Assembly (NCBI GenBank): GCA_965237775.1
Contig: OZ250155.1
Coordinates: forward strand, 17,084 to 81,083
Direction of reading: 5' to 3'
From: Dehalococcoidia bacterium
GTDB taxonomy: Bacteria > Chloroflexota > Dehalococcoidia > Lucifugimonadales > UBA3495
Length of the DNA: 64,000 nucleotides
The notes under the pieces were generated by a model. The model saw only the letters and a list, made by a program, of their open reading frames with translations. It was not told the DNA's origin and made no database searches. Position 1 is the first letter of the stretch, and every line of letters starts with the position of its first letter. Of this stretch, positions 1,462-33,654 are shown piece by piece. A program made the translations under genes and the position numbers.

Positions 1462-1492
1462 GTCCCACTATGTTATCCCACCGGATACCTAG

Positions 1493-2944
1493 TACTACAA
1501 CGACGGGTTATTTGGTAGGATAGGTGACCAGATGGTGATGGGTGGTTTGGGTGATGGATGCGGCGAACTTCGAGCGGGTCTACGACGGCTTTCAGCAATT
1601 TCATGCCTTCTTCGCCCAGGCCTTTGGCCGCAAGCAATGGCGGGAACGCAGCCGGAACTATCTTCAGGCCCTGCTGGTGCAGTCTGGGGAGCGGCGCAAC
1701 GCTGAGAATCTTTCCGAATCGGTGGGCGTCTCGGCACGGGCGCTGCAGCGCTTTCTCACCGAGGCTCGCTGGGACGATGACGCAGTGATGGGACGCTTGC
1801 AGGAGTATCTGGCCCCCAGGCTGGCTCACCCTGAGGCGGTGTGGGTGTTCGACGGCAGCGACTTCCCCAAGCAGGGCGGGAAGTCGGCGGGAGTGGCCCG
1901 GCAGTACTGTGGGAGACTGGGCAAGGTGGCAAACTGCCAGGCCGGGATGTTTCTGGCCTACGTCAGCCCCCTGGGCCGGGCGTTGGTGGACAAACGGCTG
2001 TATCTGCCCGAGAGTTGGACTTCGGACCCGGGCCGCTGTGCGGCGGCGGGTGTGCCGAAGGAGCGGGGGAGCTACCGTTCGAAGACGGAGTTGGCCCTGG
2101 TGATGCTGGAGCGGGCCAGGGAACTGGGTCATCTCAGGGCCAAGTGGGTTGCCGGAGACGACGCCTTCGGGATGTCGCCGTCCTTCCGGGAGGGACTGGC
2201 GGCTCAGGGGATGTGGTACGTGCTGGACGTCCCCGGCGGCAGCACGGTGTGGCCTTTGGAGCCTTCGTGGACCAATCCGGAATATCAGGGGTTCGGGCGT
2301 CCCCGCAAACCCAAGCTCAGGGATGGGCAGCGCCGGACCATGGAGCAACGCAGTGATGAATTGCCGGAGGAGGCCTGGCGGGAGATAACGGTGGCGGAGG
2401 GATCCCAGGGGCCCCGCACCTACCGTTTCAGCGCCCAGCGGGTGCGGGTAACCGAGAGGCGCAAGCCCGGTGAGGTGGTCTGGGCCATCTGGCGATGTAA
2501 CCTGGACGGCAGCGAGCCTCGCTACTACCTGTCCAACGCCCCAGAAGGCACTCCCCTGGAGACCCTGGCGTACGTGGGCGGTTCCAGGTGGCGCATTGAA
2601 ACGGAGTTCGAGACTGAGAAGGGCGACGTGGGGCTGGACGAATACGAGACCCGGAGCTGGGCGGGCTGGCATCACCATATCGCAATGTGCCTGCTGGGCG
2701 GGGCATTCCTGCTGGACTTGCAGCAGGAATGGGGGGGAAAAGATGACCCGGATCACCCGATCCCAAGTGTACCGGGTGGTGCGGGAGATGCTGCCCAGGG
2801 AACAGTTCGGGCCGGATGAGTTGCTGCTATGGCTGGCGGATACGCAGTTACGCAACGAACGGGCGCGCCGCTCCCACGAGAAACGCCGCGCCGCCCGCCG
2901 TGAAGGCAGGATGGAGCCGCCACCCTAAAGTCGTCGTTGTAGTA
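1493..2944 (+). mobile_element. IS701-family insertion sequence, 1452 bp
   Basis: It has perfect 13-bp terminal inverted repeats: tactacaacgacg at 1493-1505 and cgtcgttgtagta at 2932-2944. These are flanked by a direct CTAG repeat at 1489-1492 and 2945-2948. The element encodes an IS701-like DDE transposase. Confidence 0.85.
1542..2928 (+). CDS. IS701-family DDE transposase; the reading frame changes (+1) at a G7A4 run at 2731-2741
   Basis: The 425-aa ORF 1542..2819 contains GVARQYCGRLGKVANCQ, WVAGDDAFG and SRWRIETEFETEKGDVGLDEYETRSWAGWHHH. The expected C-terminus (MTRITRSQVYRVVREMLPREQF...) continues in ORF 2470..2928 after the homopolymer. Confidence 0.8.
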
Positions 2945-3038
2945 CTAGTACGCAAGCGGGAAATGTCATTCGGCGCCGCCGGTTTCGGAGATTGCCTGCT
3001 CCCCTTCACCATCCGGCGGCAACCCGGCGCATGGGTCC

Positions 3039-3503
3039 CTACCTCAACACAAACCACCACAGGAGAACGCTGCCGACCAGCAGCACGAGCAGCACGACGG
3101 CGGTTACGCGGGCTGCGATGAACAGCTCCTTCGTCTCCTTGTGCTCAGCGACCTCCTTCTGGTACGCTCTCTCAAGCTCATGGTAAGGCCGGTTGGCGGT
3201 GGCTGCGGACTCCCTGGCCTCGTCCCGCTCCCGCTCCAACTCGGACGCTCTGAGCTTCCACTCGGATACGCTTTGCTCCAACTCCCGCACAGTTCGCTGA
3301 AGCTCGTCCTCCCTGGCGACGGCCCGGCGCAGCAGTTCCTCGTCGGGGACGTACTCCGGCCCCTGCATCCGCACGTACACCCGGCGGCCCTCCCGGCGAA
3401 CCTCGACCTCCCCCCGCCGGATCGTCCGGTCCAGGGTGGACAGGGAGATCTCCAGCTCCTCCGCCGCCTCCGCCTTGGACACCCAGCGGACTGACTCTTC
3501 CAT
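3039..3503 (-). CDS. Excisionase/MerR-type HTH DNA-binding protein with a coiled coil and a C-terminal TM anchor
   Basis: The protein has an HTH segment (WVSKAEAAEELEISLSTLDRTIRRGEVEVRREGRRVYV), a charged coiled coil, and a hydrophobic tail (ARVTAVVLLVLLVGSVLLWWFVL). I prefer the ATG at 3503 because GAGGAAAG lies just upstream; the track ORF starts at a TTG at 3545. Confidence 0.6.
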   Translation of the reverse strand: MEESVRWVSKAEAAEELEISLSTLDRTIRRGEVEVRREGRRVYVRMQGPEYVPDEELLRRAVAREDELQRTVRELEQSVSEWKLRASELERERDEARESAATANRPYHELERAYQKEVAEHKETKELFIAARVTAVVLLVLLVGSVLLWWFVLR

Positions 3504-3775
3504 CGCTCTTTCCTCGCTATAGGCTGACACGTCGGAGGGTTGCAAGTTGTCGAAACCCAGTACATTTTAATCCCAGTATTTTAGGCCCGCTATTCACTGC
3601 CGACCCTGACCGGTCAGGCGATGCTTCAACTCACTTTCGTACCTGAAACCGGCCCATGTCGGGCCTTTTTCAGCCTCCCCGGGCCACGGGATCGGGGCCT
3701 GCCGGGACAGTTTTGGACACCCAGCGGGCGTTGTGGAGAGATGGGGCTGCGTCAGTAGCTGCGTCAGTAGCTCCA

Positions 3776-5516
3776 TCACGTAACCCCCTCTATAGGACGC
3801 ATCCGGTGCCGCAGCGAGTCCCAGCCGTAGGCCGACAGCCCCCGCAGCGCCAGCCGCGGGGAGCGCGATTCCCACAGGGGACGCCAGGACCGGCCCAGCA
3901 GTCCCCGCCGGGTCAGCGCCGGCGGGGACGACACCAGGATGGGCAGCGTCATCAGGTTCATCCGGGTCGCCGTCCTCACGTATGTCTCCTCCACCTCCTC
4001 GTTGTCCACCACGAATAGCGTAACGGGAAACGGGGCCATGTCTGCTTCGGGAGCGTTGGACCAGTAGTAGCGGGTGTAGGGTCTCAGCCGGGCCAGCACT
4101 CCCCTGGGGTGGCGAGCGCGGAGCTCGTGCTCGAAGTAGAAGGGGATATGGAGTCCATCGACAACCAGCTGCCCCACGGCGTCCGGGGCGATGGCCGACT
4201 CCCCCCAGTTGAAGGCCCGGTCGGTCTTGGCCGTGGGGATGGACCACGTTAGCTCGGAGTCTGTTGCCGTCTGGGCCTCCGCCGCCAGCTCCGACAGGAA
4301 CCAGGTCACCCCGTCGGCGTGCCTGGTCTGCCGCGCCCAGGTCTCGATGCGGTGGCCCACGTGCCGCCTGCGGCCCCTGTTGTCCGCGGTTAGCTCCGTA
4401 CTCCAGATGCCCCGCGTCGTCGGCAGTTGCGCCCGGTCCCGGTGGGTGACGTAGCGGATGCCCTCCTCCGACAGGGTGTAGCGGACGTCGCCGCGCTTGC
4501 CCCGGCGCTCCAGCAGGTCCCAGGCATTCACGAGATTGTGCAGCATCTGGCTGACCCTCCCCTCGGAGACGCCCAGCCAGCGGGCCAGGTGCTCTCGGGG
4601 TATCATCGGGTGGTCGGTGACCAGGTCCAGCGTCCTCTTCTCCGACGGCGTTAGACCGAAGGCCGGCGCCGACGACACCATCTGCTCCGGGTCGGGAAGC
4701 GAGGCCCGCTTGCGCTCCGGCGGCTCGTTGAACCGTCCCCGGTTCGGGCTGCCGCGAGTGCTGATGAACTCCAGCGAGTAGGGCAGGCTGCCGAACACCC
4801 ACGAGGCATAGCGCCAGGCATTGCTGTTCCAGTCTTCCAGCGCCTCCCGGGACTCCACGGCGACGTAGGCTTCCTCCAGGTTGGCGGTCTCGCAGAACTG
4901 GGTCGTCAACCGCTGTTCCCAGACGCTGGGGGTCAGTACCAGGACCGTGCCGGGGCGGAGCCGGTACCCGTACTCCGCGATGGCCCGCAGCCGGTCGTAG
5001 AGGGACCGCCGCCGCAGGCCCGGACCCTGGCGCACCACGCCGAAGCTGCGCCCGTCGTGGCGGGTGATAGGCGTCGAACCGGCCCCGGCGGTGAAAGTCC
5101 ACCTGCGTCCGCAATCCATCGGTTCCGGGAGAAAGAGACGCTGCCAGGCGGTAGATGGTTGCCACCGCGTCCATCCGGCGGATGAGCAAGGTGAGCCACT
5201 CCCGGGACACCGGGTAGGCCCTAACGAAATCCGAGGGTGTCTCGAAGCCGAGAATACCGGCGGCCTCGCCGACGCCCTTCCTCGTCAGGTAGTACCGCCT
5301 ACTCGAAGGCAGGTGCGCCGTGCCGTGGCTGACCCGCCCCACGATGCCGTCGTCCAGCAGACCCGCCAGGCCCCGGTGCATGGCAACGTGTGCCTCCCCG
5401 GTGATCATAGCCAGTTCCGCCGTCTCTACCAAGGGCATCCGGCTCAGGTCGTGCAGCAGTTCCTGGTCGGAGACGCTAATGTATCGAGCGTAGCAGACCG
5501 AAGTCCCGACGGTCAT
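3776..5516 (-). pseudogene. Replication-relaxation (Replic_Relax)-like protein with two wHTH regions, interrupted by a 1-nt frame change near 5064-5072
   Basis: The N-terminal wHTH part (from the ATG at 5516) lies in the frame of ORF 3594..5597. The rest lies in ORF 3776..5119 and contains APDAVGQLVVDGLHIPFYFEHELRARHPRGVLARLRPY. Joining the frames at GRFDA|ITRHDGRSFGVV gives a continuous protein that is paralogous to 27814..30303. Confidence 0.6.
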
Positions 5517-5626
5517 CAGGCAAGTGTCAGTGACGGTGCGTGAGATTGGCGATTCTGTTGGTCCGAGCATTGCCGGGCGGTGTAGAATGAGAATCACCGA
5601 AGTAGGCCAGCACGGGGGTCATCACG

Positions 5627-5899
5627 ATGAATGCGCCAACCCGCCCGACAGCGGAGATCGCCCGCCTGGGCAAGGAGATATACGAGCGAGACATTCGCGG
5701 GCAGGTCGAAGATGCCCACCACGGTGAGGTCGTCGCCATTGACGTGGATACCGGCAATTGGGCGGTTGGGGACAATGTGATTGACGCGACGGAACGCTTG
5801 CGGGTGAAGCTCCCGGGCGCGGTCAACGTCTTGAGCGAAAGGGTGGGATATCCTGCGCTGCGGCACTTCGGTGGGCGCCCCCTGGGGAGAGACCGGTGA
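5627..5899 (+). CDS. Small conserved-looking protein, upstream partner of the retropepsin-like protease
   Basis: This 90-aa ORF overlaps the next gene by 4 nt (GTGA). Its content (GKEIYERDIRGQVEDAHHGEVVAIDVDTGNWAVGDN) resembles small partner proteins I recall next to such proteases. Confidence 0.5.
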   Translation: MNAPTRPTAEIARLGKEIYERDIRGQVEDAHHGEVVAIDVDTGNWAVGDNVIDATERLRVKLPGAVNVLSERVGYPALRHFGGRPLGRDR

Positions 5900-6267
5900 T
5901 CGAGGGCGTGGTGAACGCCGCATACGAGCCGGTGATAGCCCTCGCCGTGCAAGGCCAATCGGGGCAGTCTCGGGATATTGAGGCCGTCGTCGATACAGGC
6001 TTCAACGGGTTTCTCACCCTGCCGACCACATTGGTGTCAGAACTGGGACTTCCCTTCGTCAGCATCGGCCGGGCGACTCTCGCCGACGGTAGTGAGATAG
6101 CCTACGATGTTTACGGCGCAACCGTGCTGTGGGACGGCCAGGCCTTATACGTCGAAGCCGACGCCGCTAACAGCACTCCGCTGGTGGGCATGATGCTCCT
6201 GGACGGACAGGACCTGAACATCCAGGTCCGGGACGGCGGGCGCGTCGTCATCCAGGCCGGAGAGTAG
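5896..6267 (+). CDS. Clan AA (retropepsin-like) aspartic protease, small single-domain type
   Basis: The 123-aa ORF has the catalytic signature AVVDTGFNGFLTLP and ends in LVGMMLLDGQDLNIQVRDGGRVVI, as expected for this type. Confidence 0.75.
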   Translation: MIEGVVNAAYEPVIALAVQGQSGQSRDIEAVVDTGFNGFLTLPTTLVSELGLPFVSIGRATLADGSEIAYDVYGATVLWDGQALYVEADAANSTPLVGMMLLDGQDLNIQVRDGGRVVIQAGE

Positions 6268-6330
6268 CCGGGGCATCTTCTGCCAGAACACGCCGGGACA
6301 GGTTCCAGCAGTCTGTAAGTCTGTCTCGCA

Positions 6331-6530
6331 TTGAAATCGAAGCACTGCCGGACGGGCGCTTGCAGGGGTAAAGCCCTGCGTTGGACCTGTGCCTGCGGTA
6401 GGAGTCGGGCGAGCTGGTGTTCTATGCTTCGGCCACAGGGCGGCGCATCGCCTCCCTGGAAGATGAACGGGAGGCCCGCGCAGCCGCCGAAGCCCGTGTC
6501 CGCGAGTTGGAAGAGCAACTCTGCCGGTAA
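6331..6530 (+). pseudogene. 3' relic of a Uma2/DUF820-type endonuclease gene
   Basis: A single frame reads ...G*SPALDLCLR*ESGELVFYASATGRRIASLEDEREARAAAEARVRELEEQLCR*. This matches my recollection of the C-terminal pattern of Uma2 proteins, but it has two in-frame stops and no upstream body. Confidence 0.3.
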
Positions 6531-7012: not shown

Positions 7013-8644
7013 CTATTCCAGGCTCAGGAAGCGACGCTCGCCTTCGAAACTGTAAAACGGTTCGTGAATCAGGACGAAATTACCGTCACTTGCTTCGATC
7101 TGAAAACAGACATTGCCTTCGGTCTGTCCCCCGGGAAATAGCTCGGCGTCCAGTTCGCCCGGTATGACTCCGCAGGAATGATCGAATGGCGTGTAAACGA
7201 CCCGCTTGCCTCCAATCAGGCTGTAGTCGGATTCTGCCACGTTCAAGGAATCGGCACCGGAGGCGTAGGAAACTGCGACCGTCACCATGTAGAAGCGGTT
7301 TCCGGGTTCCGGCGGCTCGTTGAACTGATTGGCTTCCATCACCAAGTCGGCGGCGTCCTCCAAGATGCGGGTAACGACGATTTCCGTGCCGTCCGAACCC
7401 TGCAAAACATCGCCCGCCGCTACCGGATTGTCCAGCGTCATCCCTGGCGGCAAAGCTAGATTTTCCGGGGAAGGAGTTGTGAGTGGCACCGGAGAGAAAT
7501 TTGCCTCAGAGCCAATGCTCTGAGGGTTAATGCTCAGGAAGCGGCGCTCGCTTTCGAAACTGTAAAACGATTCGTGAATCAGGACGAAATTACCATCACT
7601 TGCTTCGATCTGGAAACAGACATTGCCTTCGGTCTTTCCCCCGGGAAATAGCTCGGCGTTCAGTTCGCCCGGTATGACTCCGCAGGAATGATCGAATGGC
7701 GTGTAAATGACTCTCTTGCTTCCGATCAGGCTGAAGTCGGATTCTGCCACGTTCAAGGAATCGGCACCGGACGCATAGGAAACTGCGACCGTCACCATGT
7801 AGAAGCGGTTTCCGGGTTCCGGCGGGTCGTTGAACTGATTGGCTTCCATCACCAAGTCGGCGGCGTCCTCCAAGATGCGGGTAACGACGATTTCCGTGCC
7901 GTCCGAACCCTGCAAGACATCGCCCGCTGCTACCGGATTGTCCAGTGTCATCCCTGGCGGAATAGAAGTTGGCGTTGGTGCTGGAGCCGGTGGGACGGTA
8001 GGCGGTGGAGTTTGCGTAGCAACCGTCGGGGTCATGGTTGCGGGTATTCCAATCGAAGCGGGAGTAGCAGTAGGCGCAAGCGTTGAAGTCCGCAAAGCGG
8101 TAGCCATTGCAGTTGCCACCGCCGGTATTGATGCCTCGGCTGTCTCTGTCGGTTTGGCGACCTGCCCTTCTGCAGAGATCTGCGGTGCCCCGCGGGACAA
8201 CGCTATGCTGCAGTCTTTAACAACGATGTCAAGAATACCGTCGTCTGTGACCTGCCCCAGCACGCTTACGGTTTGCCCCTGTTGCAGGGATAAAACAGCA
8301 GATTCGTCAGTCTTGTCTACCTTGCAGACAACGTCAACCGTGAAATTACCCGTTTCCAGTTTGACATCATACTTGTTCCCTGCCTCGGTGACTGATCTAA
8401 TAATACCTGCAATCAAGGCAATTCTGTCGTTGTATTTGTTAGTCCACGCGACCTCGTTTAGTTCTTTTTCATTTTGTAGCACCTCAGCTGACACGGAGAA
8501 GGGAGTCGGGCCTGGTATTGGAGTTGGAGAGGCGACCGGACCGCCGTTAGGGACGCCATTGGCAGGTGGAGGCTCGCTGCCGCAGGCAACGAAAGTCAAA
8601 GACACGAGGATAAGGAAGGCGAAGCCAGTACACATCCTGGACAT
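7013..8644 (-). CDS. Secreted lipoprotein: OB-fold (tRNA_anti-like) domain, Pro/Thr-rich linker, and two tandem DUF4352-like domains
   Basis: The signal peptide and lipobox read MSRMCTGFAFLILVSLTFVAC|GS, starting from the ATG at 8644, which is preceded by AAGGGGG. The OB-like segment reads KYNDRIALIAGIIRSV...VVCKVD...LQQGQTVSVLGQV. Two nearly identical copies of about 170 aa follow (PPGMTLDNPVAAGDVLQGSDGTEIVVTRILED...PGNRFYMVTVAVSY...GNVCFQIEASDGNFVLIHE). Confidence 0.8.
   Translation of the reverse strand: MSRMCTGFAFLILVSLTFVACGSEPPPANGVPNGGPVASPTPIPGPTPFSVSAEVLQNEKELNEVAWTNKYNDRIALIAGIIRSVTEAGNKYDVKLETGNFTVDVVCKVDKTDESAVLSLQQGQTVSVLGQVTDDGILDIVVKDCSIALSRGAPQISAEGQVAKPTETAEASIPAVATAMATALRTSTLAPTATPASIGIPATMTPTVATQTPPPTVPPAPAPTPTSIPPGMTLDNPVAAGDVLQGSDGTEIVVTRILEDAADLVMEANQFNDPPEPGNRFYMVTVAVSYASGADSLNVAESDFSLIGSKRVIYTPFDHSCGVIPGELNAELFPGGKTEGNVCFQIEASDGNFVLIHESFYSFESERRFLSINPQSIGSEANFSPVPLTTPSPENLALPPGMTLDNPVAAGDVLQGSDGTEIVVTRILEDAADLVMEANQFNEPPEPGNRFYMVTVAVSYASGADSLNVAESDYSLIGGKRVVYTPFDHSCGVIPGELDAELFPGGQTEGNVCFQIEASDGNFVLIHEPFYSFEGERRFLSLE
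7022..7959. repeat. Tandem duplication inside the lipoprotein gene: two units of about 430 bp with a 510-bp period
   Basis: Segment 7022-7449 closely matches 7532-7959, with only scattered substitutions by eye. The antisense ORFs 7178..7459 and 7688..8086 give near-identical translations. Confidence 0.85.
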
Positions 8645-9071
8645 AGGGAACCCCCTTGCCGGCGTTGGGACAGGGACCACCGCCACAGCGATCCTGCCCT
8701 TGCATGAACCTTCAAAGGGGCAAAGATGCCCCTGGCCAAGAGCTCGGCCTGGTCCATGCTCTGAGAAAGGGGTCCAAGATCGCTGTAGCGGGCGGAATTA
8801 TACTAGCAATGAGCCAAGGAGGCCCGCACTTAATGCATCAGCATAGACCCCAATCCACCGAATAACTGAGTGTGGCAGTGGGTTGGAGAGGCGAACTGGA
8901 CCAAGTTAATTTCTAGAGAATTCGTGCAGAGTCTAGTGATAGTCCCGTAGCTTCTGCATATGGGCCCAACATCGGTCCCCACGAACGCTTCCTAATCGTT
9001 GGACTCCCACCGGATCATTAATCTAGCTGGGTCAACCTCGGGCAAATGCAAGTCTACGCCGGCGTATCTGG

Positions 9072-12036: not shown

Positions 12037-13983
12037 ATGAATAGCAGGAGCATCATGGACAACGTTGTTTCCTTAGACGACCTGTTCCACAAGAGGCTGT
12101 TCCGGGTACCCGACTATCAGCGTGGCTACTCTTGGGAACAACGGCAAGTCCGAGAGTTCCTTGAAGACCTGGAGCTGCTTACATTTGGTCGTTACCATTA
12201 CACAGGCACGGTTGTTCTCCACGAATCGCGTCCAGAAGACCAACGAATGGATAAAGATGGGAACGTTTATCTCCCCGTTGACATCGTTGATGGACAGCAG
12301 CGACTGACAACCATCGTCTTACTACTGGATGGGGTCCGCAGGTCGTTGGCTTCATTATCCGATTCGGCTCAAGGTCTCTCTCAAGGGATCTTAAGAAACT
12401 TCATCTCCACTGATGAGATGAACGGACAACGCCTGTTTAAGCTGTCTCTCAATGCGGACACAGACCATTTCTTTAAGGAGAGCATCCTCGCTGAACAGCC
12501 GGGCGTGGAGGGGCCACAGATCACTTCTGAGCGTAGACTAGCAGAGGCGAAGCAACAGATAGCCGACTATCTTTCGACGAACGTCCATCCACAGGAATGC
12601 GCCGGAGAAGAGTGGCTGCGGACTCTGTATGCGAAGCTCGCCACTCAACTCCGTTTCACTCTGTATCAGGTAGGAGATGAGGCCGAGGTTGGGGTCATTT
12701 TCGAAGTAATGAACGACCGAGGCAAGCCATTGACTGACTTGGAGAAGGTCAAGAATTATCTCCTTCACGTCTCCACATCGCTCGCCATTCCCAACGATCT
12801 CGCCAAGTCAGTCAATGGGGCTTGGGCAGAGATTCTCCGCCAGCTGATGTCTGCCCATCTCGTTTCAAGTGATGACGAAGACCAACTGCTACGGGCGCAT
12901 TGGCTGACGCACTACAACCCTCAGTCCAGGCAATGGGAGCGTAGCAGGAGCATAAAACGGAAGTTCGACCTTCGCGAGTTCAAAGACCGGCATGAAGAAC
13001 TCCTAAGCCACTTGCACACTTACGCCGAAGGTCTCAGGGCCTCATGCATTAGTTTCTGCGACGCTTATCAGCCAAACAGACCCGACGCTTTTGCATCGTT
13101 CAAGGCGAATCCCAAGGTCAGGTCACAGGTAGTTGATTGGAGCGCCAAACTGAGAAGAACTGGATTCGTTGCCACGTTTCTTCCCTTGCTTATGGCGGTG
13201 AGGCTGGGTTGGCCAAACGACCCTACTAAATACCTCGAAGTCCTGAAACTGTGTGAGGCTTTTGCTTTCCGGGTGTATCGATGGAATGAATATAGGTCCA
13301 ACGCTGGACAAGCACGACTGTTCCGCCTTGGCTATGACTTGGCGACGAAAAACCAGACGTTTGGCGATACGGTTGAGGCATTGAAGGCTGAGCTTGCTTA
13401 CTGGTGCAGCGTCGATGACTTCGAAGACGAAACTACTCCGGACAGCACCTTCAATTGGTATCGTTGGGCCGGACTGCGCTACTTCTTATATGAGTATGAA
13501 GTCGCCCTAGCGTCAGAACAAGGCGCTTCCCCTATTGCGACATGGGATGAAATTTGGAATCGAGACCTTCAGGACACCATCGAACATGTTCTACCTCAAA
13601 CGATTAGCGATCGGCCATATTGGGAAGGCAGGTTCACGACACAAGAACACCAACGATACGTTCACGACCTGGGGAATCTATCCCTTACAAAGCACAACTC
13701 GACCTACCAGAATAAACCGTTTCCTGAAAAGAAAGGCGCAGTCGACGCCGCCGGCCACTGCTATGCAAAGTCTCCCCTGTATTTGGAGAGGGAGTTGACA
13801 CAATGGTATGACTGGGATGCCGACACGATCGACGAACGCCGGCTTAAACTGTTGGAATGGGGGAAGAAAAGGTGGGCAGTCGATGCGAGTGACCCGCAAT
13901 ATGAAGGCCGTGCACAAGATTTGATAGACAACGAGCTTGACGAAGATGATGGACTTTTCGGCGATCACGACATCGTGGAATAG
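12037..13983 (+). CDS. GmrSD-like type IV restriction endonuclease (DUF262 N-terminal plus DUF1524 His-Me C-terminal domain)
   Basis: The DUF262 motifs are RVPDYQRGYSWEQRQV and IVDGQQRLTTIVLLL. The DUF1524-type motifs are TIEHVLPQT and VHDLGNLSLTKHNSTYQNKPF. I prefer the ATG at 12037 (or 12055) over the track start at 11893. Confidence 0.85.
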   Translation: MNSRSIMDNVVSLDDLFHKRLFRVPDYQRGYSWEQRQVREFLEDLELLTFGRYHYTGTVVLHESRPEDQRMDKDGNVYLPVDIVDGQQRLTTIVLLLDGVRRSLASLSDSAQGLSQGILRNFISTDEMNGQRLFKLSLNADTDHFFKESILAEQPGVEGPQITSERRLAEAKQQIADYLSTNVHPQECAGEEWLRTLYAKLATQLRFTLYQVGDEAEVGVIFEVMNDRGKPLTDLEKVKNYLLHVSTSLAIPNDLAKSVNGAWAEILRQLMSAHLVSSDDEDQLLRAHWLTHYNPQSRQWERSRSIKRKFDLREFKDRHEELLSHLHTYAEGLRASCISFCDAYQPNRPDAFASFKANPKVRSQVVDWSAKLRRTGFVATFLPLLMAVRLGWPNDPTKYLEVLKLCEAFAFRVYRWNEYRSNAGQARLFRLGYDLATKNQTFGDTVEALKAELAYWCSVDDFEDETTPDSTFNWYRWAGLRYFLYEYEVALASEQGASPIATWDEIWNRDLQDTIEHVLPQTISDRPYWEGRFTTQEHQRYVHDLGNLSLTKHNSTYQNKPFPEKKGAVDAAGHCYAKSPLYLERELTQWYDWDADTIDERRLKLLEWGKKRWAVDASDPQYEGRAQDLIDNELDEDDGLFGDHDIVE

Positions 13984-20833: not shown

Positions 20834-22689
20834 CCTAGAAATGCGGATGAAAAGCCTTGGTTGAGAAGAGGGCTTTAGGCAGAAAGGCCGGCGTCAGCAA
20901 CGCCAGCGGCCAAATCAGACCGAGCCGGATTGCACCAAATGTTGCTGTAGCACTGTCGGCGCCGGCCCAGGCGTCACGGTAGCCGATGGCAGCGCCACCA
21001 ATATCGCCTGTCAAACCGGTTTTGCCCGCCAGCAGGGTCAGGTTGGCCACCGTGGCTGCCAGGTACAGCTGGAACCGGGTTTTGGTCCGACCGAAGTAGC
21101 GGGCCTGGCGAATCCCCAGCTGCACCAGCCGGGCCAGCCGGTGCTCCACCACCACCCGGCGTTGACAATACCCGGCAAAGGCTTCGCTCTGCTGCAGGGC
21201 CCGGGCCTGCTGCAACAAAGCCTCCTGCGGGTGCAGTTGGACCGTTCGCCCCAATCCCGATGACCCGGCCACGCATTGAGAGCGCAGCGGGCAGGCTCCG
21301 CACACCGCCGCATCGAACCGGAAGGCTTGCAGCCGGTGAGTCCGTCCCGTGGAACCGGTCCGCTTCCCCGCCGGCAGCAGCTTCCGGGTGACCTGACCCG
21401 CCGGACAGGTGCAGGTTCCCGCCGCCAGGTCAATCCGGAAGTCATCCTTCGGGAAGTGTTTCCGGTTCGGACGGCCCGGCACCCGGGCAATCAGGGTCCG
21501 TCCCGCGTCGGCGAAGGCCTGCCTGGTATCGCCGTCGCCATAAGCGGCATCGCCCAGCGCCTCCTCCACCGGCACACCGGTATTGGCCTCGCTCCGTTCC
21601 ACCAGTTCCAAGGCCCCCAGGTTGTCCGGAGCGTTGCCGGGCAATACTTCCACAGCAGTAATGAGCTGGGTATCGGTGTCCACCACAATCGCCGCCTTGT
21701 GCCCGTCGAAGCGACGGCTGCTGCTCTTGTGGCCGTGGCGCATCTCCGGGTCATGCACCGACACCATCCGGTCCTTGCTCACCCCGTCCTTGAGACCAAT
21801 ACCGTCGCCGGTGCGCTCCACATCCTGGAGCAGCAACTGCCCCAGCAACTCCGCCGCCGCGACGATGCCCTGCCGCTCAGGGCTGCCCTCCGGCAGAGCC
21901 TCCTGCGCCTGCCGCCCTGCTTCCAACAGACGGTCGGCGTCAGCCACAATCGTGGCCAGCAACCCCGCCCGTGCCCCCTTGTCGGACCAGTCGATGGCCG
22001 ACTCTCCCTTGATGCTGGATGCAAGGTACCGCCCGTACCCCTGGGCCTCGGCCCATCCTTTGACATTGGACCTCTCCACGGCTGCCAGCGCCCGCAGCAG
22101 CTTCACAATCCCGTCCGCCAGCAGGTTGAAGGTGTCCCTCACGGCGCCCCGCCCCAGGATGTTCGTGGTGTCCAGCGCCACCCGCATGCCGCGCTTTTTT
22201 AGGTAGCCCGACTCCCGGGCCAGCCGCAGGCTGGACTCGAACACCGCCCGCACCTTGTCGTGGAGAATCAACTGGGCGCGGAACACCTGGAGCGTGCTCT
22301 TGGCGAAGGGCCTGTCCTCCACCTCAATTCCCAACGCCACTTTCCAGCGGATGTCGAAGTCGGCTCTGGCCTTGGCCTCGGCGTCGCTCACCTTGTCGTG
22401 GGTCTGCAGCAGCAGCGCCGTGGCCAGCAGGCTGGGCGGCACGCTGTCCCGGCCGTTGTCGGCGCAGTAGAACTCGGCGAAGTCGGAGTCCCGGAATAGT
22501 TGGCCTCTCAACGATGCCAACAGGCCGTAGAAAGTGTCCTTACCCACGTGGTCCAGATACAGCCGGTCCGCCTCCCAGAAGCCCCTCTGATCCGATCGCT
22601 CTCCCAGCATTCCCTTGCTCCGCTATCTTTGATACCCCGGAGTATAACCCCTGGCATCAAAATGGACAGTTTCCGGCCAGACTTCTAGG
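20834..22689 (-). mobile_element. IS1182/IS5-superfamily insertion sequence, copy A, 1856 bp
   Basis: The ends are CCTAGAAGTCTGG... and ...CCGCATTTCTAGG (an inverted repeat matching at 10 of 13 positions). The element appears identical to the copies at 23433-25288 and 60085-61940. Confidence 0.9.
20835..22610 (-). CDS. IS1182/IS5-like DDE transposase (591 aa)
   Basis: The N-terminal InsH/DUF772-like region reads GRDSVPPSLLATALLLQTHDKVSDAEAKARADFDIRWKVALG. The DDE region contains FDGHKAAIVVD and LGDAAYGDGD. The C-terminus reads RRVVVEHRLARLVQLGIRQARYFGRTKTRFQLYLAATVANL. Confidence 0.9.
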   Translation of the reverse strand: MLGERSDQRGFWEADRLYLDHVGKDTFYGLLASLRGQLFRDSDFAEFYCADNGRDSVPPSLLATALLLQTHDKVSDAEAKARADFDIRWKVALGIEVEDRPFAKSTLQVFRAQLILHDKVRAVFESSLRLARESGYLKKRGMRVALDTTNILGRGAVRDTFNLLADGIVKLLRALAAVERSNVKGWAEAQGYGRYLASSIKGESAIDWSDKGARAGLLATIVADADRLLEAGRQAQEALPEGSPERQGIVAAAELLGQLLLQDVERTGDGIGLKDGVSKDRMVSVHDPEMRHGHKSSSRRFDGHKAAIVVDTDTQLITAVEVLPGNAPDNLGALELVERSEANTGVPVEEALGDAAYGDGDTRQAFADAGRTLIARVPGRPNRKHFPKDDFRIDLAAGTCTCPAGQVTRKLLPAGKRTGSTGRTHRLQAFRFDAAVCGACPLRSQCVAGSSGLGRTVQLHPQEALLQQARALQQSEAFAGYCQRRVVVEHRLARLVQLGIRQARYFGRTKTRFQLYLAATVANLTLLAGKTGLTGDIGGAAIGYRDAWAGADSATATFGAIRLGLIWPLALLTPAFLPKALFSTKAFHPHF

Positions 22690-22807
22690 CCAGGCTTTGA
22701 TAGCACCAAGCCACGTGTCGTATGTTCACATGTTAATCTTGTCCGCCGATGCAGGACTGATATTCGGGATACTGTCAACATGGACCGGGGGGAGATTGGG
22801 AAACTAA
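22690..22807 (+). pseudogene. 3' part of the membrane protein gene split by IS copy A
   Basis: The in-frame continuation reads ...QALIAPSHVSYVHMLILSADAGLIFGILSTWTGGRLGN*, which appears as the C-terminus of track ORF 22514..22807. Confidence 0.5.
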
Positions 22808-23432: not shown

Positions 23433-25288
23433 CCTAGAAGTCTGGCCGGAAACTGTCCATTTTGATGCCAGGGGTTATACTCCGGGGTATCAAAGATAGC
23501 GGAGCAAGGGAATGCTGGGAGAGCGATCGGATCAGAGGGGCTTCTGGGAGGCGGACCGGCTGTATCTGGACCACGTGGGTAAGGACACTTTCTACGGCCT
23601 GTTGGCATCGTTGAGAGGCCAACTATTCCGGGACTCCGACTTCGCCGAGTTCTACTGCGCCGACAACGGCCGGGACAGCGTGCCGCCCAGCCTGCTGGCC
23701 ACGGCGCTGCTGCTGCAGACCCACGACAAGGTGAGCGACGCCGAGGCCAAGGCCAGAGCCGACTTCGACATCCGCTGGAAAGTGGCGTTGGGAATTGAGG
23801 TGGAGGACAGGCCCTTCGCCAAGAGCACGCTCCAGGTGTTCCGCGCCCAGTTGATTCTCCACGACAAGGTGCGGGCGGTGTTCGAGTCCAGCCTGCGGCT
23901 GGCCCGGGAGTCGGGCTACCTAAAAAAGCGCGGCATGCGGGTGGCGCTGGACACCACGAACATCCTGGGGCGGGGCGCCGTGAGGGACACCTTCAACCTG
24001 CTGGCGGACGGGATTGTGAAGCTGCTGCGGGCGCTGGCAGCCGTGGAGAGGTCCAATGTCAAAGGATGGGCCGAGGCCCAGGGGTACGGGCGGTACCTTG
24101 CATCCAGCATCAAGGGAGAGTCGGCCATCGACTGGTCCGACAAGGGGGCACGGGCGGGGTTGCTGGCCACGATTGTGGCTGACGCCGACCGTCTGTTGGA
24201 AGCAGGGCGGCAGGCGCAGGAGGCTCTGCCGGAGGGCAGCCCTGAGCGGCAGGGCATCGTCGCGGCGGCGGAGTTGCTGGGGCAGTTGCTGCTCCAGGAT
24301 GTGGAGCGCACCGGCGACGGTATTGGTCTCAAGGACGGGGTGAGCAAGGACCGGATGGTGTCGGTGCATGACCCGGAGATGCGCCACGGCCACAAGAGCA
24401 GCAGCCGTCGCTTCGACGGGCACAAGGCGGCGATTGTGGTGGACACCGATACCCAGCTCATTACTGCTGTGGAAGTATTGCCCGGCAACGCTCCGGACAA
24501 CCTGGGGGCCTTGGAACTGGTGGAACGGAGCGAGGCCAATACCGGTGTGCCGGTGGAGGAGGCGCTGGGCGATGCCGCTTATGGCGACGGCGATACCAGG
24601 CAGGCCTTCGCCGACGCGGGACGGACCCTGATTGCCCGGGTGCCGGGCCGTCCGAACCGGAAACACTTCCCGAAGGATGACTTCCGGATTGACCTGGCGG
24701 CGGGAACCTGCACCTGTCCGGCGGGTCAGGTCACCCGGAAGCTGCTGCCGGCGGGGAAGCGGACCGGTTCCACGGGACGGACTCACCGGCTGCAAGCCTT
24801 CCGGTTCGATGCGGCGGTGTGCGGAGCCTGCCCGCTGCGCTCTCAATGCGTGGCCGGGTCATCGGGATTGGGGCGAACGGTCCAACTGCACCCGCAGGAG
24901 GCTTTGTTGCAGCAGGCCCGGGCCCTGCAGCAGAGCGAAGCCTTTGCCGGGTATTGTCAACGCCGGGTGGTGGTGGAGCACCGGCTGGCCCGGCTGGTGC
25001 AGCTGGGGATTCGCCAGGCCCGCTACTTCGGTCGGACCAAAACCCGGTTCCAGCTGTACCTGGCAGCCACGGTGGCCAACCTGACCCTGCTGGCGGGCAA
25101 AACCGGTTTGACAGGCGATATTGGTGGCGCTGCCATCGGCTACCGTGACGCCTGGGCCGGCGCCGACAGTGCTACAGCAACATTTGGTGCAATCCGGCTC
25201 GGTCTGATTTGGCCGCTGGCGTTGCTGACGCCGGCCTTTCTGCCTAAAGCCCTCTTCTCAACCAAGGCTTTTCATCCGCATTTCTAGG
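23433..25288 (+). mobile_element. IS1182/IS5-superfamily insertion sequence, copy B, 1856 bp
   Basis: It has the same ends and the same internal ORF set as copy A, in the opposite orientation. Confidence 0.9.
23512..25287 (+). CDS. IS1182/IS5-like DDE transposase (591 aa)
   Basis: Its translation is identical to those of 20835..22610 and 60164..61939. Confidence 0.9.
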   Translation: MLGERSDQRGFWEADRLYLDHVGKDTFYGLLASLRGQLFRDSDFAEFYCADNGRDSVPPSLLATALLLQTHDKVSDAEAKARADFDIRWKVALGIEVEDRPFAKSTLQVFRAQLILHDKVRAVFESSLRLARESGYLKKRGMRVALDTTNILGRGAVRDTFNLLADGIVKLLRALAAVERSNVKGWAEAQGYGRYLASSIKGESAIDWSDKGARAGLLATIVADADRLLEAGRQAQEALPEGSPERQGIVAAAELLGQLLLQDVERTGDGIGLKDGVSKDRMVSVHDPEMRHGHKSSSRRFDGHKAAIVVDTDTQLITAVEVLPGNAPDNLGALELVERSEANTGVPVEEALGDAAYGDGDTRQAFADAGRTLIARVPGRPNRKHFPKDDFRIDLAAGTCTCPAGQVTRKLLPAGKRTGSTGRTHRLQAFRFDAAVCGACPLRSQCVAGSSGLGRTVQLHPQEALLQQARALQQSEAFAGYCQRRVVVEHRLARLVQLGIRQARYFGRTKTRFQLYLAATVANLTLLAGKTGLTGDIGGAAIGYRDAWAGADSATATFGAIRLGLIWPLALLTPAFLPKALFSTKAFHPHF

Positions 25289-26713: not shown

Positions 26714-27494
26714 CCAGCCCTATATGCCCCACGAGCAAACGATACAGGCCAGGCCGCCGCCGAATGGGCCCGCCACCGGGACATCGTCTCCCTCGGGACC
26801 CTGACCGTCGCAACCGCCGTGACCGGCACAGCCGTCGTGATCGCAACCGGCTCGGCGATGTCCCGGGACATCGCCGCCGGCAACCCGGCAACCCGGCAAC
26901 CCCGGTTATCATCTGGGGCTACTTGGGCATCATCATCCTGGGACTCTACCTGGCCATCACACTGGCGACCGACGCCGCTGAGCCGGAGACCAGGGAGACC
27001 CCGCACAGGCATGGCGCCGCGGTATCCCCGCCGTAAGCCATCATGGCCAACTCGGCCGCCGGAAACGGCGACTGGCGCCTGGCGATCATCTGGTCCGTGG
27101 CCGCAGCGGTCTTCGTCTCAGCACCGACGGTTTTCCTGTTCAGGTTCGAGAGACGGAGATGAGCCCGTGAGTCCGGAAGCAAGGCCAGGCGAGAGGCCGG
27201 AGACCAAGAGAAGGCGCGACCGCCTTGCTGGTATCCCGAAGGCCACGACGATGGAAGCCGCCACCGACCCGGGCTGGCTGACTACGATTACGATCAATAG
27301 TCGGGACGACTTCCCTGGGGATTCCGGGGTGAACCCCAGGCGGGCAACTCCTGAGCGCCCTGCTTCCGGGCGGGCAGTATCACCCGGTACATCAAGGCCG
27401 AAGGTTTCAGGGGATAGATGACCGCCTTCGCCGACAACCAGAGAGGACCCACGGAAGAAATCCCGGATGTGCCGGCCTTCATCAACAGGTCGAC

Positions 27495-27672
27495 TCACCC
27501 GTAATTGACACTGAAGGACGGAGACATCCTGAAAGCGCCATCCCGGGCAACCCATTGCGCCCGCAGATTACCCCCCGCCAAAGCCCGCTCCAGCATCTCC
27601 AAGGCCAATCGGCCCTGTGTCAGTCGGCCGGCTAACGGCTCAGTGGCCGCCGCCAAGCCGGAAACGAAGTGT
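27495..27672 (-). pseudogene. Relic fragment of an IS701-family transposase
   Basis: The reverse-strand translation GRLALEMLERALAGGNLRAQWVARDGAFRMSPSFSVNYG* parallels TELALVMLERARELGHLRAKWVAGDDAFGMSPSFREGL in the intact copy at 1542..2819. Confidence 0.45.
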
Positions 27673-30303: not shown

Positions 30304-30864
30304 ATTCTCAACCTCTTGTCCAACTCATACATCCAGTATGACGGAGAAATTTGGCTCCACTTGGGTTGTTAAGAGCGGAGGTGTCAATAGCAAGCCGGAT
30401 GGCTTGTTGAAAAAGTCAGACGCCGGGTGACCGCCTGAATTCGCACTACGAATATCGGCTTTCTTTTCGGTTATGTGTTATCGGCCCTCACTCGATATAA
30501 CTTTATCGCCCGACTTTCGGCAATGCAGACGCCGAGAATTTCTCCTGTACTCACTAGAGCGGACTTTTTCAACAAGCCCTCTATCTTCCTATTGACAGAC
30601 GGCGCAGGCGCAGGTCCGCGATGGCGCCCTCGGTGGCCCGAACACCGGCCAGTTGCGTGGGGTCTAGCGGGTAGGGGTGCTGGTGCAATGCGGTCATGGG
30701 TGGACTCCTGCGCCAATACTCTTGGGGATCATCCGGACACAATCCGGGGAACAGCAATAACCTTCAGGAGGTATCCGGGCCAAAGTTCACGAAAGGTCGG
30801 GAGTGTTACCTGGGATTGCGCTGGCGTGTGAGGGCGGCCCGGGCCTGAGTCTACGCGCAGTACA

Positions 30865-31083
30865 TCATCGCCATTCTGTCTCTGATGCCCGCGGCCTGGA
30901 CTCTACCCACGCGATGACTTCCCGGGCTCTCCAGGCGACGGCCCTGCGCCCAATGCGCAGGGGAGCCGGGAAGTCCCCGCGGGCGACCATGGCAAGAAGT
31001 GTGGAACGAGAGAAGCCGGTGGTCCTGAGGACCTCGGGGAGCCTCATCAGACGGAGGCTTTCGATACTGGTGGCAAGGCTCAT
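30865..31083 (-). CDS. AlpA-family phage regulatory/excisionase-like HTH protein
   Basis: The 72-aa ORF contains LMRLPEVLRTTGFSRSTLLAMVARGDFPAPLRIGRRAVAWRAREVIAWVESR. Confidence 0.8.
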   Translation of the reverse strand: MSLATSIESLRLMRLPEVLRTTGFSRSTLLAMVARGDFPAPLRIGRRAVAWRAREVIAWVESRPRASETEWR

Positions 31084-31668
31084 AGTACGCTCCTCACAAA
31101 AATCCCCGCGCAGCCAACCTCAGAGAGCCGGTCTCTAAGCGTTATCTTGCACGGGGTCTGTGAGAACCGTGCCGTTGAGTAGGGCTTGTAATTAAGCCCT
31201 TAACCACAGTGGGATCTCGATGTGGCGCCCACTGTGCTGGGTCCGGGGGCCCTGAGCCTGCCGTGATTCTTTACGAGGGGCTCAACCCCCACTCTGTGCG
31301 GCGTGGCTGAAGCCACCCGCGTTCTCTATGCGGACATGGAGTCCGCCCTGTTTTTTACTGCGGGCCTGATGCCTGCAGGTGATTTAGCGAACCAGTGGCC
31401 CGCCCTCATTCTCTCGGCGGATCTGGAACTCGCCGTAGTCCTTACGGCGAACCTGGAGCCCCCGGGTAGGTCAGCTCGCTGCGCTAACGGAGACAATATA
31501 ACCTACCCCTCAATCGTAGCAATGATATTCGGGTTGGTCAAGACCAGATTCCCGCAGCAGAAAATTGCGAAACTCCCTTGCGGGTCTTGCGCGTGTTGGA
31601 TGCCTTTGGCTTTCTCCGGGTCTCGTTGCCCTGCCGGTGATGGAAGGGGGTGAATTGGGCAGTTTGAC

Positions 31669-31878
31669 TTAACCTTGGCCGAAATCTGATCTGGAGATTC
31701 CCAGGTTTCTCCTGATCCGGTGGAGGGTTCCTGTGGCCAGGTCACGGTTGCCATGCCTGGGGATAGGCGTCTGCCGCCCGTTTGCGGGGTTCTCCCATAT
31801 TTCGTGGGACCCGTCGGCCTGGCGCTGGAATTTACAACCCAGGCTCTCCAACTTTCTGCGTAGTTCCCTGTAGGTCAT
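31669..31878 (-). CDS. hicA: HicA-family mRNA interferase toxin
   Basis: The 69-aa ORF reads MTYRELRRKLESLGCKFQRQADGSHEIWENPANGRQTPIPRHGNRDLATGTLHRIRRNLGI. It overlaps the upstream hicB by 4 nt (ATGA). Confidence 0.85.
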   Translation of the reverse strand: MTYRELRRKLESLGCKFQRQADGSHEIWENPANGRQTPIPRHGNRDLATGTLHRIRRNLGISRSDFGQG

Positions 31879-32120
31879 GCGGTTACTGTCAGGGTGCCTT
31901 CGAAGCTGCGCAGGGGAGTCATCTCCGGGGGCAGTGCTTGCCCATTTTCCTTGCGCAGTTGGATGATGGTCTGTGCTACTGCCAGAAGGCTTTTAAGTGT
32001 TTCTTCCGGGGTCTCCCCCCAGGCCATGCAACCCTGTAGCGCCGGAATTTCGGCCAGGTACATCCAGCCCTCGCTTTCCTCGGGTTCGTGGAGCACGTAG
32101 TCCAGCTGGTATAGGTCCAT
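31875..32120 (-). CDS. hicB: HicB-family antitoxin (short form without a DNA-binding domain)
   Basis: The 81-aa ORF contains GWMYLAEIPALQGCMAWGETPEETLKSLLAVAQTIIQLRKENGQALP, which is UPF0150/HicB-like. Confidence 0.75.
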   Translation of the reverse strand: MDLYQLDYVLHEPEESEGWMYLAEIPALQGCMAWGETPEETLKSLLAVAQTIIQLRKENGQALPPEMTPLRSFEGTLTVTA

Positions 32121-32414
32121 CTTTTTCCTCCGGTCTGGACGTTCGCTGCCGTGGAATCTTTTCCATTTTGCCCTGCTGAATTGTTCTGGTCAAAGGGCTG
32201 TCTTTCAGCGGGGTTTTCACTTCATTGGTTTCGCAATTTTCTCCCCGCAGGGACCCCAACACCTGTCAGTATTGGATCAGAGCTAGGAGGAGCCAACCAA
32301 GTCCATCATCAGGGCGCGATTGCCCTGGCCAGAATCCCCAGGCCAATCGCATCTTAGTCAAGTTCTAAGAAATTGGTTAAATCAGGGTACAAGTTCTTGG
32401 TGTGAGGGAGGAAG

Positions 32415-33654
32415 ATGATGGGTGGATTGAAGAATGGGTCGATCTTAGATTGTTTCGCGGGGTTGGAAGACCCACGAATTGAGCGTAGCAAGCGGCATAA
32501 GCTGCTGGACACCATAGCGATTGCCATCTGCGGAGCGAACTCCTGGGTCCACGTGGAGCTATTCGGCTGGAGCAAGGAGGAGTGGTTAAAGAGCTTCTTG
32601 GAACTGCCCAACGGAATCCCATCCCATGACACTTTCGGGGAGGTCTTCTCGCGGATAAACCCGGACCTGTTCCAAAGCTTTTTAATGGCATGGACCCAAG
32701 AGATAGCCCAACTGGCCCTGGGAGAAGTGGTGGCCATCGACGGGAAGACGGTGCGCCGCTCCCACGATGGATTCCGGCGCAAGGGGGCAATCCACCTGCT
32801 AAGCGCCTGGGCGTCGGCCAACAGCATGACTTTGGGACAGGTGAAGGTGGATGAGGAGTCCAACGAAATCACCTCCATTCCCAGGTTGCTGGAACTATTG
32901 ACCCTACATGGCTGTATCGTGACCATCGACGCCATGGGCTGTCAAAAGGAGATTGCCCAACAGATCGTCGACGCCGGGGCGGACTACGTGCTGGCGGTGA
33001 AGCAGAACCAGGGCCAGTTGTTTGAAGACGTACGTGACCTCTTCCAGGGTGCGGAAGAGTTTGGCTTTGAAGGAGTACCCCATGATTTCGCCCGGACTGT
33101 AGAGAAGGGCCACAGGCGCATCGAATCTCGAGAATGTTGGGTGGTCGCCGACCCGGGCTGTCTAGTATTACAACGACGGTTCAAGGCGGGATGTCGCGGG
33201 ATGCACGAAGGGCGGCGCGCCGCCCGCCGTGAAGACAGGATGGAGCCGCCACCCTAAAGCCGTCGTTGAAGTACTAGAGTACCTGGAGAACGGGAAGCAA
33301 TGGGCCGGGCTTGAGGCGGTGGTGAAAGTAACGGCCCGGCGGGAGACGGACCGGGGCGTGAGCATCCAGTCCCGTTACTACATCAGCAGCCTGAGGGCTC
33401 CCGCTGCCCGGATGCTGCAGGCCATTCGCCGCCACTGGGGCGTCGAGAATTCTCTGCATTGGACCTTGGACGTAACCTACCGAGAGGACCAATGCCGGGT
33501 GCGCAGAGACCATGCTCCCCAGAACATGGCGGCCCTGCGCAACATCTCCCATAACCTGCTCAAGCCCGAGTCCAGCCTCAAAACCGGTATCCAAGGCAAA
33601 CGGCTCCAAGCCGGCTGGCGTGAGCACTACCTGATCAAAGTCCTCTCCTCCTAA
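32415..33654 (+). pseudogene. ISAs1-family transposase interrupted by a 108-bp MITE
   Basis: The N-terminal part reads FAGLEDPRIERSKRHKLLDTIAIAICGANSWVHVELFG...IDAMGCQKEIAQQIV. The C-terminal part reads RYYISSLRAPAARMLQAIRRHWGVENSLHWTLDVTYREDQCR. Removing 33166-33277 restores ...ADPGCLEYLENGKQWAG in frame. Confidence 0.85.
33166..33273. mobile_element. 108-bp MITE related to the IS701-family element at 1493-2944
   Basis: Its ends, tattacaacgacgg and ccgtcgttgaagta, form an inverted repeat matching at 12 of 14 positions. A CTAG direct repeat flanks it at 33162-33165 and 33274-33277. The last 59 bp or so match the right end of the IS at 2886-2944 at about 55 of 59 positions. Confidence 0.85.

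Follow-up and report, generated by a model that had tools for sequence, protein, structure and literature searches.

The stretch of DNA analysed here, which we call the window, comprises 64,000 nucleotides of contig OZ250155.1 (GenBank assembly GCA_965237775.1) from a Dehalococcoidia bacterium of the Chloroflexota, whose genome is rich in insertion sequences (ISs) that target CTAG. Near the start of the window lies an IS of the IS701 family, and further downstream a 108-bp element with matching termini interrupts the transposase gene of an ISAs1-family element (Table 1). Our chief concern is the transposase gene of the IS701-family element, in which a catalytic body and a conserved tail lie in different reading frames, the change of frame falling in a purine run that closely follows a conserved hairpin. 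We also consider the origin of the 108-bp element, which resembles a miniature inverted-repeat transposable element (MITE).

Members of the IS701 family measure 1400-1550 bp, have terminal inverted repeats and generate target duplications of exactly 4 bp, and most of them are without the Tyr of the YREK motif (De Palmenaer et al. 2008; PMC2266710). The IS in the window is 1452 bp long, its left and right inverted repeats (IRL, TACTACAACGACG; IRR, CGTCGTTGTAGTA) are complementary at 13/13 positions, and the sequence it duplicates is CTAG; repeats and flanks lie exactly where an earlier interpretation made from the letters alone, hereafter the sequence-only reading, had placed them. Once corrected for the change of frame, the transposase scores 352 bits against the IS701 model of NCBIfam, NF033540 (cut-off 150), and 196 bits against Pfam DDE_5 (cut-off 27), which bears out the family assignment of that reading. 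Direct inspection of the motif GGSRWRIETEFETEK gives G-x2-R-x3-E-x6-K, in which R-x3-E-x6-K is kept and Gly replaces the Tyr of YREK; a PDB sequence search found no relative. The IS is a new, intact member of the family. Its transposase is not the single open reading frame (ORF) without frameshift that is characteristic of IS701, given the +1 change at 2731-2741; this is a variant gene organisation, and membership in the family stands. The description of the IS as full-length is thus right for its complete 1452 bp and missed the two-frame transposase, which is conserved throughout the clade. In exact look-ups directed at an empty site in related strains, neither the genes that flank the IS nor ORF1 proved to be on record.

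The transposase gene repays closer inspection. ORF1 ends at 2819 and the last 60 codons are in the +1 frame, a layout that recurs in nearly every copy elsewhere. Behind the motif CAGCAGGAnT, 25/25 elements have a run composed only of purines, which ranges from G3A8 to G8A3 and is 11 nt long in 24 of them; the one exception, at locus L008, has a 10-nt run and a single ORF. Loss of one nucleotide is what separates two ORFs from one, and where the run naturally measures 10 nt the copy has one uninterrupted ORF. Which frame, then, is constrained on each side of the run? We compared column variability among 20 non-redundant elements with pairwise identities of 56-98%. Upstream of the run it is the third positions of frame 0 that vary most (1.00 bits vs 0.47 and 0.33 bits), and downstream it is the third positions of the +1 frame (1.14 bits vs 0.67 and 0.62 bits). 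The +1 tail follows the pattern [KN]-[ML]-P-x-[IL]-T-R-P-Q-V-x-R-V-[LV]-R-E-x-L-P ... W-L ... R-N-x-R-A-[KR]-x-S-H in 20/20 elements, and frame 0 beyond the run is unconserved sequence rich in Pro, Ala and Gly. The transposase gene accordingly reads as deliberately split, with its catalytic body followed by a conserved tail of ~60 amino acids (aa) in the +1 frame. An AlphaFold model of a fused transposase (mean predicted local distance difference test score 53; tail 40-63) was too poor for fold comparison and was not used.

The split form is widespread. Besides the window (2705-2741), the frame change is found at loci L009-L014, L019, L022, L023, L028, L033, L039, L056, L069, L075, L077, L092, L093, L104, L112, L119 and L139, and it is also present in a SPAdes contig (L010) and in metagenome contigs from JGI and NCBI whole-genome shotgun data that were assembled independently of the set of metagenome-assembled genomes (MAGs). 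The 120 best protein clusters divide into a shorter form, which reaches 86-89% coverage (~410 aa; ~81% of clusters), and a fused form (450-460 aa; ~19%).

Directly 5′ of the run the IS is predicted to form a stable hairpin. The core helix of 8 bp encloses a 6-nt loop of variable sequence, and in the window copy the stem is extended to 10-11 bp, with a folding energy of -25.9 kcal/mol (z -4.2); RNAalifold predicts the same hairpin independently, at -13.1 kcal/mol. Across the elements 98% of cells are paired, the seven departures consisting of four C-to-U changes, in which a G-U pair is kept, and three breaks. Constraint at synonymous sites is pronounced: the five synonymous third positions of the hairpin arms have a mean entropy of 0.06 bits vs 1.09 for 388 other third positions of ORF1, a difference with a P of about 1e-5 by resampling.

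How might one protein be made from such a gene; does the RNA polymerase slip, does the ribosome shift, or is the tail produced on its own? A precedent for slippage comes from the IS630 cassette of Roseiflexus, in which a hairpin lies directly 5′ of a T5C5 run and RNA polymerase yields transcripts minus one C; there, forward realignment costs one rU:dG pair, and insertion would need an intolerable mismatch (Penno et al. 2015, summarised in PMC5009743). The general XmYn pattern of slippage has been described as well (PMC6211511). The run of the IS701 clade has this form, being G(n)A(m) and purine-only in 25/25 elements, and by the rule of PMC5009743 deletion of one nucleotide should cost a single rG:dT wobble, with an rA:dC mismatch expected for insertion. 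In the mechanism that we propose, the hairpin would stimulate forward realignment of the RNA:DNA hybrid, such that a fraction of transcripts would lose one purine; the expected sole product of slippage, a 10-nt run, would fuse the two frames. Standard translation of slipped transcripts would then give the full-length transposase, and unslipped mRNA would give a protein without the tail, which may be functional or may act as a regulator, since it keeps the whole catalytic region. In our reading the DDE transposase recognises the 14-nt terminal core TACTACAACGACGG, inserts at CTAG and duplicates the 4 bp.

We assign a probability of roughly 0.45 to the reading that, in a widespread IS701 clade of uncultured Chloroflexota, the full-length transposase comes solely from transcripts one purine short, which would constitute a second natural class of hairpin-driven heteropolymeric slippage. 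Several observations count against it. The hairpin shows no compensatory double changes, such that its support comes from conservation and not covariation, and its arms also encode the conserved residues FLL and QQE. Additionally, a few copies combine a 10-nt run with one ORF (L008, and L138 from a 5x contig), some of which could be assembly errors or products of switching at the DNA level. In the literature that we searched, no frameshift or slippage is reported for IS701, a frame change at a hairpin and purine run likewise goes unmentioned, and searches pairing IS701 with slippage, with CTAG or with MITE gave nothing relevant; the related IS4 family is described as free of frameshifts (PMC2266710).

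Two other explanations of the split gene deserve consideration. The tail might be reached by +1 ribosomal frameshifting, or might be made separately from an ATG just after the run, with no transcriptional slippage in either case. Frameshifting of the +1 type is known in bacteria (prfB), and in 12/20 elements the purine-rich run 5′ of the ATG resembles a ribosome-binding site. That ATG, however, is replaced by CTG, GCG or GAG in 5/20 elements, and the naturally fused copies show the tail working as part of the transposase. The run differs in its codons among the elements (G3A8 to G8A3), which is unsuited to a codon-specific ribosomal shift, and a conserved structure 5′ of the site is the geometry known for polymerase slippage; on balance we consider an explanation by the ribosome or by a separate start unlikely. 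We hold it to be far less probable still that the gene is a pseudogene, or that its split reflects a sequencing error in a homopolymer, with the window's IS being dead. It is true that the frame changes in a G7A4 run, of a kind prone to errors when long reads are assembled, that several homologues in ENA have assorted indels near the site, and that fused copies exist. Yet the same frame relation holds in 24/25 elements that are 56-98% identical to one another, independent assemblies included, and the tail is under purifying selection in the +1 frame. Moreover, five copies at different sites in one genome (OZ244112), 87% identical to the IS in the window, have identical run regions and right ends. 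Because independent assemblies share the split gene, as do these five copies from a single genome, it is neither a long-read artefact nor a dead copy.

Slippage in the transcript is thus the reading that we carry forward, and its possible implications extend beyond one element. About four-fifths of these genes are annotated by pipelines as proteins of 410 aa, from which the conserved tail is missing. Should the cassette work as proposed, it would widen the reach of a mechanism for which there is essentially a single bacterial IS as example, it would supply dozens of natural variants (G3A8 to G8A3) with which the rules of RNA:DNA hybrid realignment could be tested, and the recoding site would suggest a way for elements to throttle their own transposition.

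A pattern taken from the right end of the IS was run against 185,579 species-representative genomes (one genome per species, with the source genome outside the set). It gave ten loci, all in Dehalococcoidia or Chloroflexota MAGs, whose full or partial copies share 85-94% identity with the IS in the window, CBDANJ01 being the closest genome. Although the flanks were no part of the pattern, among the complete copies at these loci all left flanks are CTAG, as are 10/11 right flanks (the exception, CTAA, is at L010), and among full-length metagenome copies CTAG stands on the side unconstrained by the search in 20/24. Within the window the terminal core TACAACGACGG, allowing at most one mismatch, occurs five times vs 0.75 expected (0/100 shuffles reach five), and four of the five matches are the ends of the IS and of the 108-bp element. 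Together the two elements are clean evidence that this IS701 clade duplicates CTAG.

We made several further observations on the target. CTAG is the most depleted 4-bp palindrome in the window (77 observed vs 233 expected), and 10 of these 77 sites are junctions of an IS or MITE. A duplicated CTAG can be reused, with an IS and a MITE (L008, 6323-6326) or two IS copies (L140, ~2936-2950) abutting at one common CTAG. At L011, L013 and L015 the left flank of an IS701 copy is exactly the CTAG that adjoins the end of an IS1182 element (CCAGACTT|CTAG). A second IS701 relative, 79% identical, occupies 12400-13965 (-) at L139; its left end, TATTAC..GGTTGGCATG, is also that of a 145-bp element at L008. 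Since its hairpin has three mismatches and its right end was not found, this is probably a decaying copy.

The 108-bp element is a composite. It is flanked by CTAG and has the termini of the family, as the sequence-only reading held, each end matching 14/15 of the positions that are conserved across the ends of 34 IS copies. BLASTN aligns nt 48-108 with nt 1392-1452 of the IS at 57/61 positions (93.4%), and a repeat finder extends the ungapped likeness to 74 nt at 89%, CTAG counted; the right 70 nt match the IS in the window at 62/70 positions and the copy at L010 at 63/70. The near-identity over ~59 bp noted earlier is therefore real, and the resemblance goes well beyond terminal repeats, the sharing of which alone had been named as grounds for giving up the idea of common descent: it is the right 61-70 nt that are homologous. 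The left end, TATTACAACGACGGTTCAAGG, has the terminus TATTAC..GGTT that belongs to another sub-lineage, seen at L008 and L139, and the left 45 nt recur at 90% identity beside CTAG in an unrelated contig, L061. We rejected L061 as a decayed second copy, as its right part scores 9 vs a shuffle mean of 10.3; it is a relative of the left arm only. Two origins for nt 14-47 of the left arm were likewise rejected, namely a diverged IS left end (shuffles do at least as well in 299/300 trials) and an inverted right end (81/300). The element is, by these alignments, not a simple deletion derivative of the resident IS, and the claim that it derives from the IS holds for the right 61-70 nt, which come from this IS lineage, and not for nt 14-47 of the left arm, which match no IS end. 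The element folds into a hairpin-like structure (-27.8 kcal/mol, z -3.7). It is short and non-coding, in keeping with the earlier statement that it has no coding capacity, and it has terminal repeats that match the IS and its parent's CTAG duplication, all of which are features of MITEs; in the collections searched, however, one locus was found, which falls short of the multi-copy or polymorphic presence by which MITEs are also recognised.

What did this insertion interrupt? Deleting the element together with one CTAG (112 nt) gives an uninterrupted ISAs1 ORF of 375 codons, ...ADPGCLEYLENGKQW..., as had been claimed; the frame is restored by removal of 112 nt only, and 108 or 116 nt fails. The restored protein (375 aa) scores 397 bits against the ISAs1 family model, NF033564 (cut-off 70), and aligns without gaps at the junction with seven homologues, whose consensus is DPxCLEYL, the junction residues L-E (CTA GAG) being conserved. 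Because only the 112-nt removal keeps the frame, the site had a single CTAG (TGT CTA GAG) before the insertion; CTAG is a genuine 4-bp target duplication that lies outside the inverted repeat. The interrupted gene is without the last third of the DDE domain, the HW..EN..HW region included. ISAs1 elements have terminal inverted repeats and 8-10 bp direct repeats; here the flanks, read by eye, are an imperfect 7-bp pair, CCATCAT/CCGTCAT, and the repeat tool did not report the candidate ends at 32311 and 33669. At codons 37-38, near 32520, four codons are absent compared with all seven homologues (IAIA----ICGA against IAIAICATICGA), and since these codons are absent, the copy may already have been impaired before the insertion.

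How did the 108-bp element come to lie in the ISAs1 gene? We think it probable that it arrived by transposition as a short element, with the transposase acting in trans. Both terminal cores are kept, the right 70 nt come from the IS lineage and the left arm, in our reading, from another lineage. The element most likely entered CTAG by transposition; the cut falls behind codon 250, so that the last third of the DDE domain lies beyond it. The evidence does not all point this way. A second complete copy was found neither in the window nor in the representative genomes scanned with the right-end pattern, a set that excludes the source genome, nor, with a left-end pattern, among the JGI metagenome matches listed; a left-arm scan of viral contigs gave 0 matches. 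When the element's four open frames were used as protein queries, no match was obtained at E<=10, a result of doubtful sensitivity, as the known L137 ORF was also missed. The insertion is present too in related strain L137, which is 99.5% identical to the window over 6.7 kb, such that recent mobility is not indicated; this strain was found through a 141-aa ORF downstream of the insertion, the chimeric 280-aa ORF of ISAs1 and MITE sequence having given no record. The insertion polymorphism among strains that the sequence-only reading had envisaged is accordingly not seen here, and of its picture of a MITE mobilised in trans it is the mobility of sister short elements that has held up, and not the presence of a second complete copy.

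These same observations would suit a different history, one in which a full-length IS701-type copy at the same CTAG of the ISAs1 gene lost ~1.3 kb internally and never moved as a short element. The scans turned up no further 108-bp copy, the right arm simply reproduces the right end of the IS, with the stop codon of the transposase included, and the insertion is old enough to be common to strains that are 99.5% identical. Against such an in-situ deletion, nt 14-47 are unlike the 34 IS left and right ends in a region that is well conserved in IS copies of the local clade; additionally, the same left arm stands beside CTAG at L061. We regard in-situ deletion as unlikely. Another conceivable origin is a chimera: a TATTAC-type short element and an IS would have stood in tandem with a CTAG in common, and a deletion, either in place or before a later transposition, would have joined the first one's left arm to the right end of the second. 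Tandem arrangements of IS and MITE (L008) and of two ISs (L140) with a common CTAG do exist, and the element does combine the TATTAC..GGTT terminus of the other sub-lineage with a right arm of the local lineage. No intermediate was found, however, and a chimera would explain where the sequence came from and not whether it later moved; we rank it below even the deletion in place. Arrival by transposition as a short element is the reading that we retain.

Other short elements with IS701-type termini are not rare. Related genomes and metagenomes commonly carry elements with these termini and flanking CTAG, so this type of transposase does mobilise MITEs. L008 has two, of 145 and 146 bp (1523-1668 and 6327-6471), one of which abuts an IS with a CTAG in common. 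In a metagenome scan a 198-bp family was found at at least five different sites (L036, L048, L050, L090, L132), and further elements of 136 bp (L095/L111/L117), 167 bp (L108) and 173-175 bp (L097, L115, L116) have the same termini and mostly CTAG flanks. The interiors of these families, which share the terminus TAYTACAACGACGG, are unrelated to one another and to the 108-bp element. The 198-bp elements at L036, L048 and L090 are centred in a palindromic flank, GACnnACTA|CTAG|TAGTnnGTC, which points either to insertion within a further repeat or to true ends that lie further out.

Table 1. Positions of the elements, genes and signals discussed, numbered from the first letter of the window
Feature	Position	Strand	Remarks
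CTAG, left target-duplication copy of the IS	1489..1492		CTAG also left of complete IS copies at 9 other loci
IS701-family IS, 1452 bp	1493..2944	+	85-94% identical copies in Dehalococcoidia/Chloroflexota MAGs
IRL of the IS, TACTACAACGACG	1493..1505	+	Family-wide conserved core is nt 1-14 plus T16
Transposase ORF1 of the IS, 421 codons from ATG	1554..2819	+	DDE_5/IS701 catalytic region complete; 0-frame end is unconserved and P/A/G-rich
Conserved hairpin, core TCCTGCTG (2707-2714), 6-nt loop, CAGCAGGA (2721-2728)	2705..2730	+	Core helix ends 2 nt before the run
Purine run G7A4, 11 nt, candidate slippage site, +1 frame change	2731..2741	+	Total length 11 in 24/25 elements
+1-frame segment, conserved tail K-MTRITRSQVYRVVREMLP...RNERARRSH...MEPPP*	2740..2928	+	TAA at 2926-2928
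IRR of the IS, CGTCGTTGTAGTA	2932..2944	+	
CTAG, right target-duplication copy of the IS	2945..2948		
IS701-type transposase relic, ~60 codons, transposase residues 176-235	27441..27620	-	tblastn 60 aa, 47% identity
ISAs1-family element, approximate ends CAGGGCGCGATTGC ... GCGATCGCCCTG	32311..33669	+	~1247 bp minus the insertion; ends read by eye
ISAs1 transposase gene, codons 1-250 plus 1 nt	32415..33165	+	ORF enters the 108-bp element for 30 codons, stop 33255-33257
CTAG, left target-duplication copy of the 108-bp element	33162..33165		
108-bp non-autonomous IS701-type (MITE-like) element	33166..33273	+	14/15 conserved terminal positions matched at each end
Right arm of the 108-bp element, homologous with the final 70 nt of the IS	33204..33273	+	Includes last codons of the transposase tail and TAA
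CTAG, right target-duplication copy of the 108-bp element	33274..33277		
ISAs1 transposase gene, codons 251-375	33278..33654	+	Holds the invariant HW..EN..HW region

Other features of the window complete the picture. The IS701-type relic that the sequence-only reading had placed near 27495-27672 is real: 27513-27608 (-) is 77% identical to nt 2091-2186 of the window, within the IS, and the tblastn match is given in Table 1. An IS1182-family element (NF033551, 326 bits) is present in three identical 1857-bp copies, at 20834-22690 (-), 23433-25288 (+) and 60084-61940 (+), with CTAG on both sides of each. The first two lie inverted to each other across a gap of only 743 bp and recall a small composite transposon, and copies 99.8% identical occur in several ENA assemblies. 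Strain L137 (6698 onwards) diverges fully from the window at 33926, just downstream of the ISAs1 element and upstream of a tyrosine integrase gene at 34071-35285; the point of divergence appears to be the boundary of a strain-variable island. Inside a 934-codon ORF at 46000-48804 (-), a degenerate tandem array (46008-46371) has units of 33-42 nt and abounds in GTC/GCC on the + strand; it would encode an acidic repeat region rich in Asp and Gly. Lastly, a 300-nt direct repeat (7022-7321 and 7532-7831; 95% identity, 510 nt spacing) inside the ORF at 7013-8686 (-) is an internal duplication of a coding segment.

How do these elements compare with known systems? The IS resembles the IS701 family in its model scores, its length of 1452 bp, its inverted repeats, its 4-bp duplication and its YREK motif without Tyr, and it differs in having a transposase in two frames with a conserved +1 change; its clade also differs in strict specificity for CTAG. 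Alignments with plasmid-borne IS701 relatives (33-39% identity) mostly end at about residue 380, a few reaching 404-421, and leave the rest of the tail uncovered. The disrupted element is like other members of ISAs1 in its DDE_Tnp_1_assoc plus DDE_Tnp_1 architecture, its ~1.25 kb and its 397 bits against NF033564, and unlike them it is cut after codon 250 and has four codons fewer than the seven homologues. As for the 108-bp element, it shares with IS-derived MITEs of bacteria its small size, the termini and duplication of its parent, the lack of an ORF, a hairpin-like fold and a position inside a gene; a miniature element with its parent's ends in another transposase gene is a well-known pattern, and in this respect the pair formed with the IS is ordinary. 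It differs in that one locus only is known and in that half of it is an IS right end and half unrelated sequence, such that it is not a symmetrical deletion derivative.

The hairpin and run invite comparison with the IS630 cassette of Roseiflexus. The two belong to different IS families, and the run there is T5C5, of 10 nt, whereas here it is a purine run, G(n)A(m), of 11 nt, in which the G/A boundary drifts and which a 2-nt spacer separates from the core stem. In the IS701 clade, moreover, the catalytic domain is complete before the shift. The two also have features in common: each is an IS of the Chloroflexota in which one nucleotide must be lost, each has a heteropolymeric run of the XmYn type, and each has a stable hairpin 5′ of that run. 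The hairpin and purine run of the window are best described as resembling this known recoding device, in a variant form.

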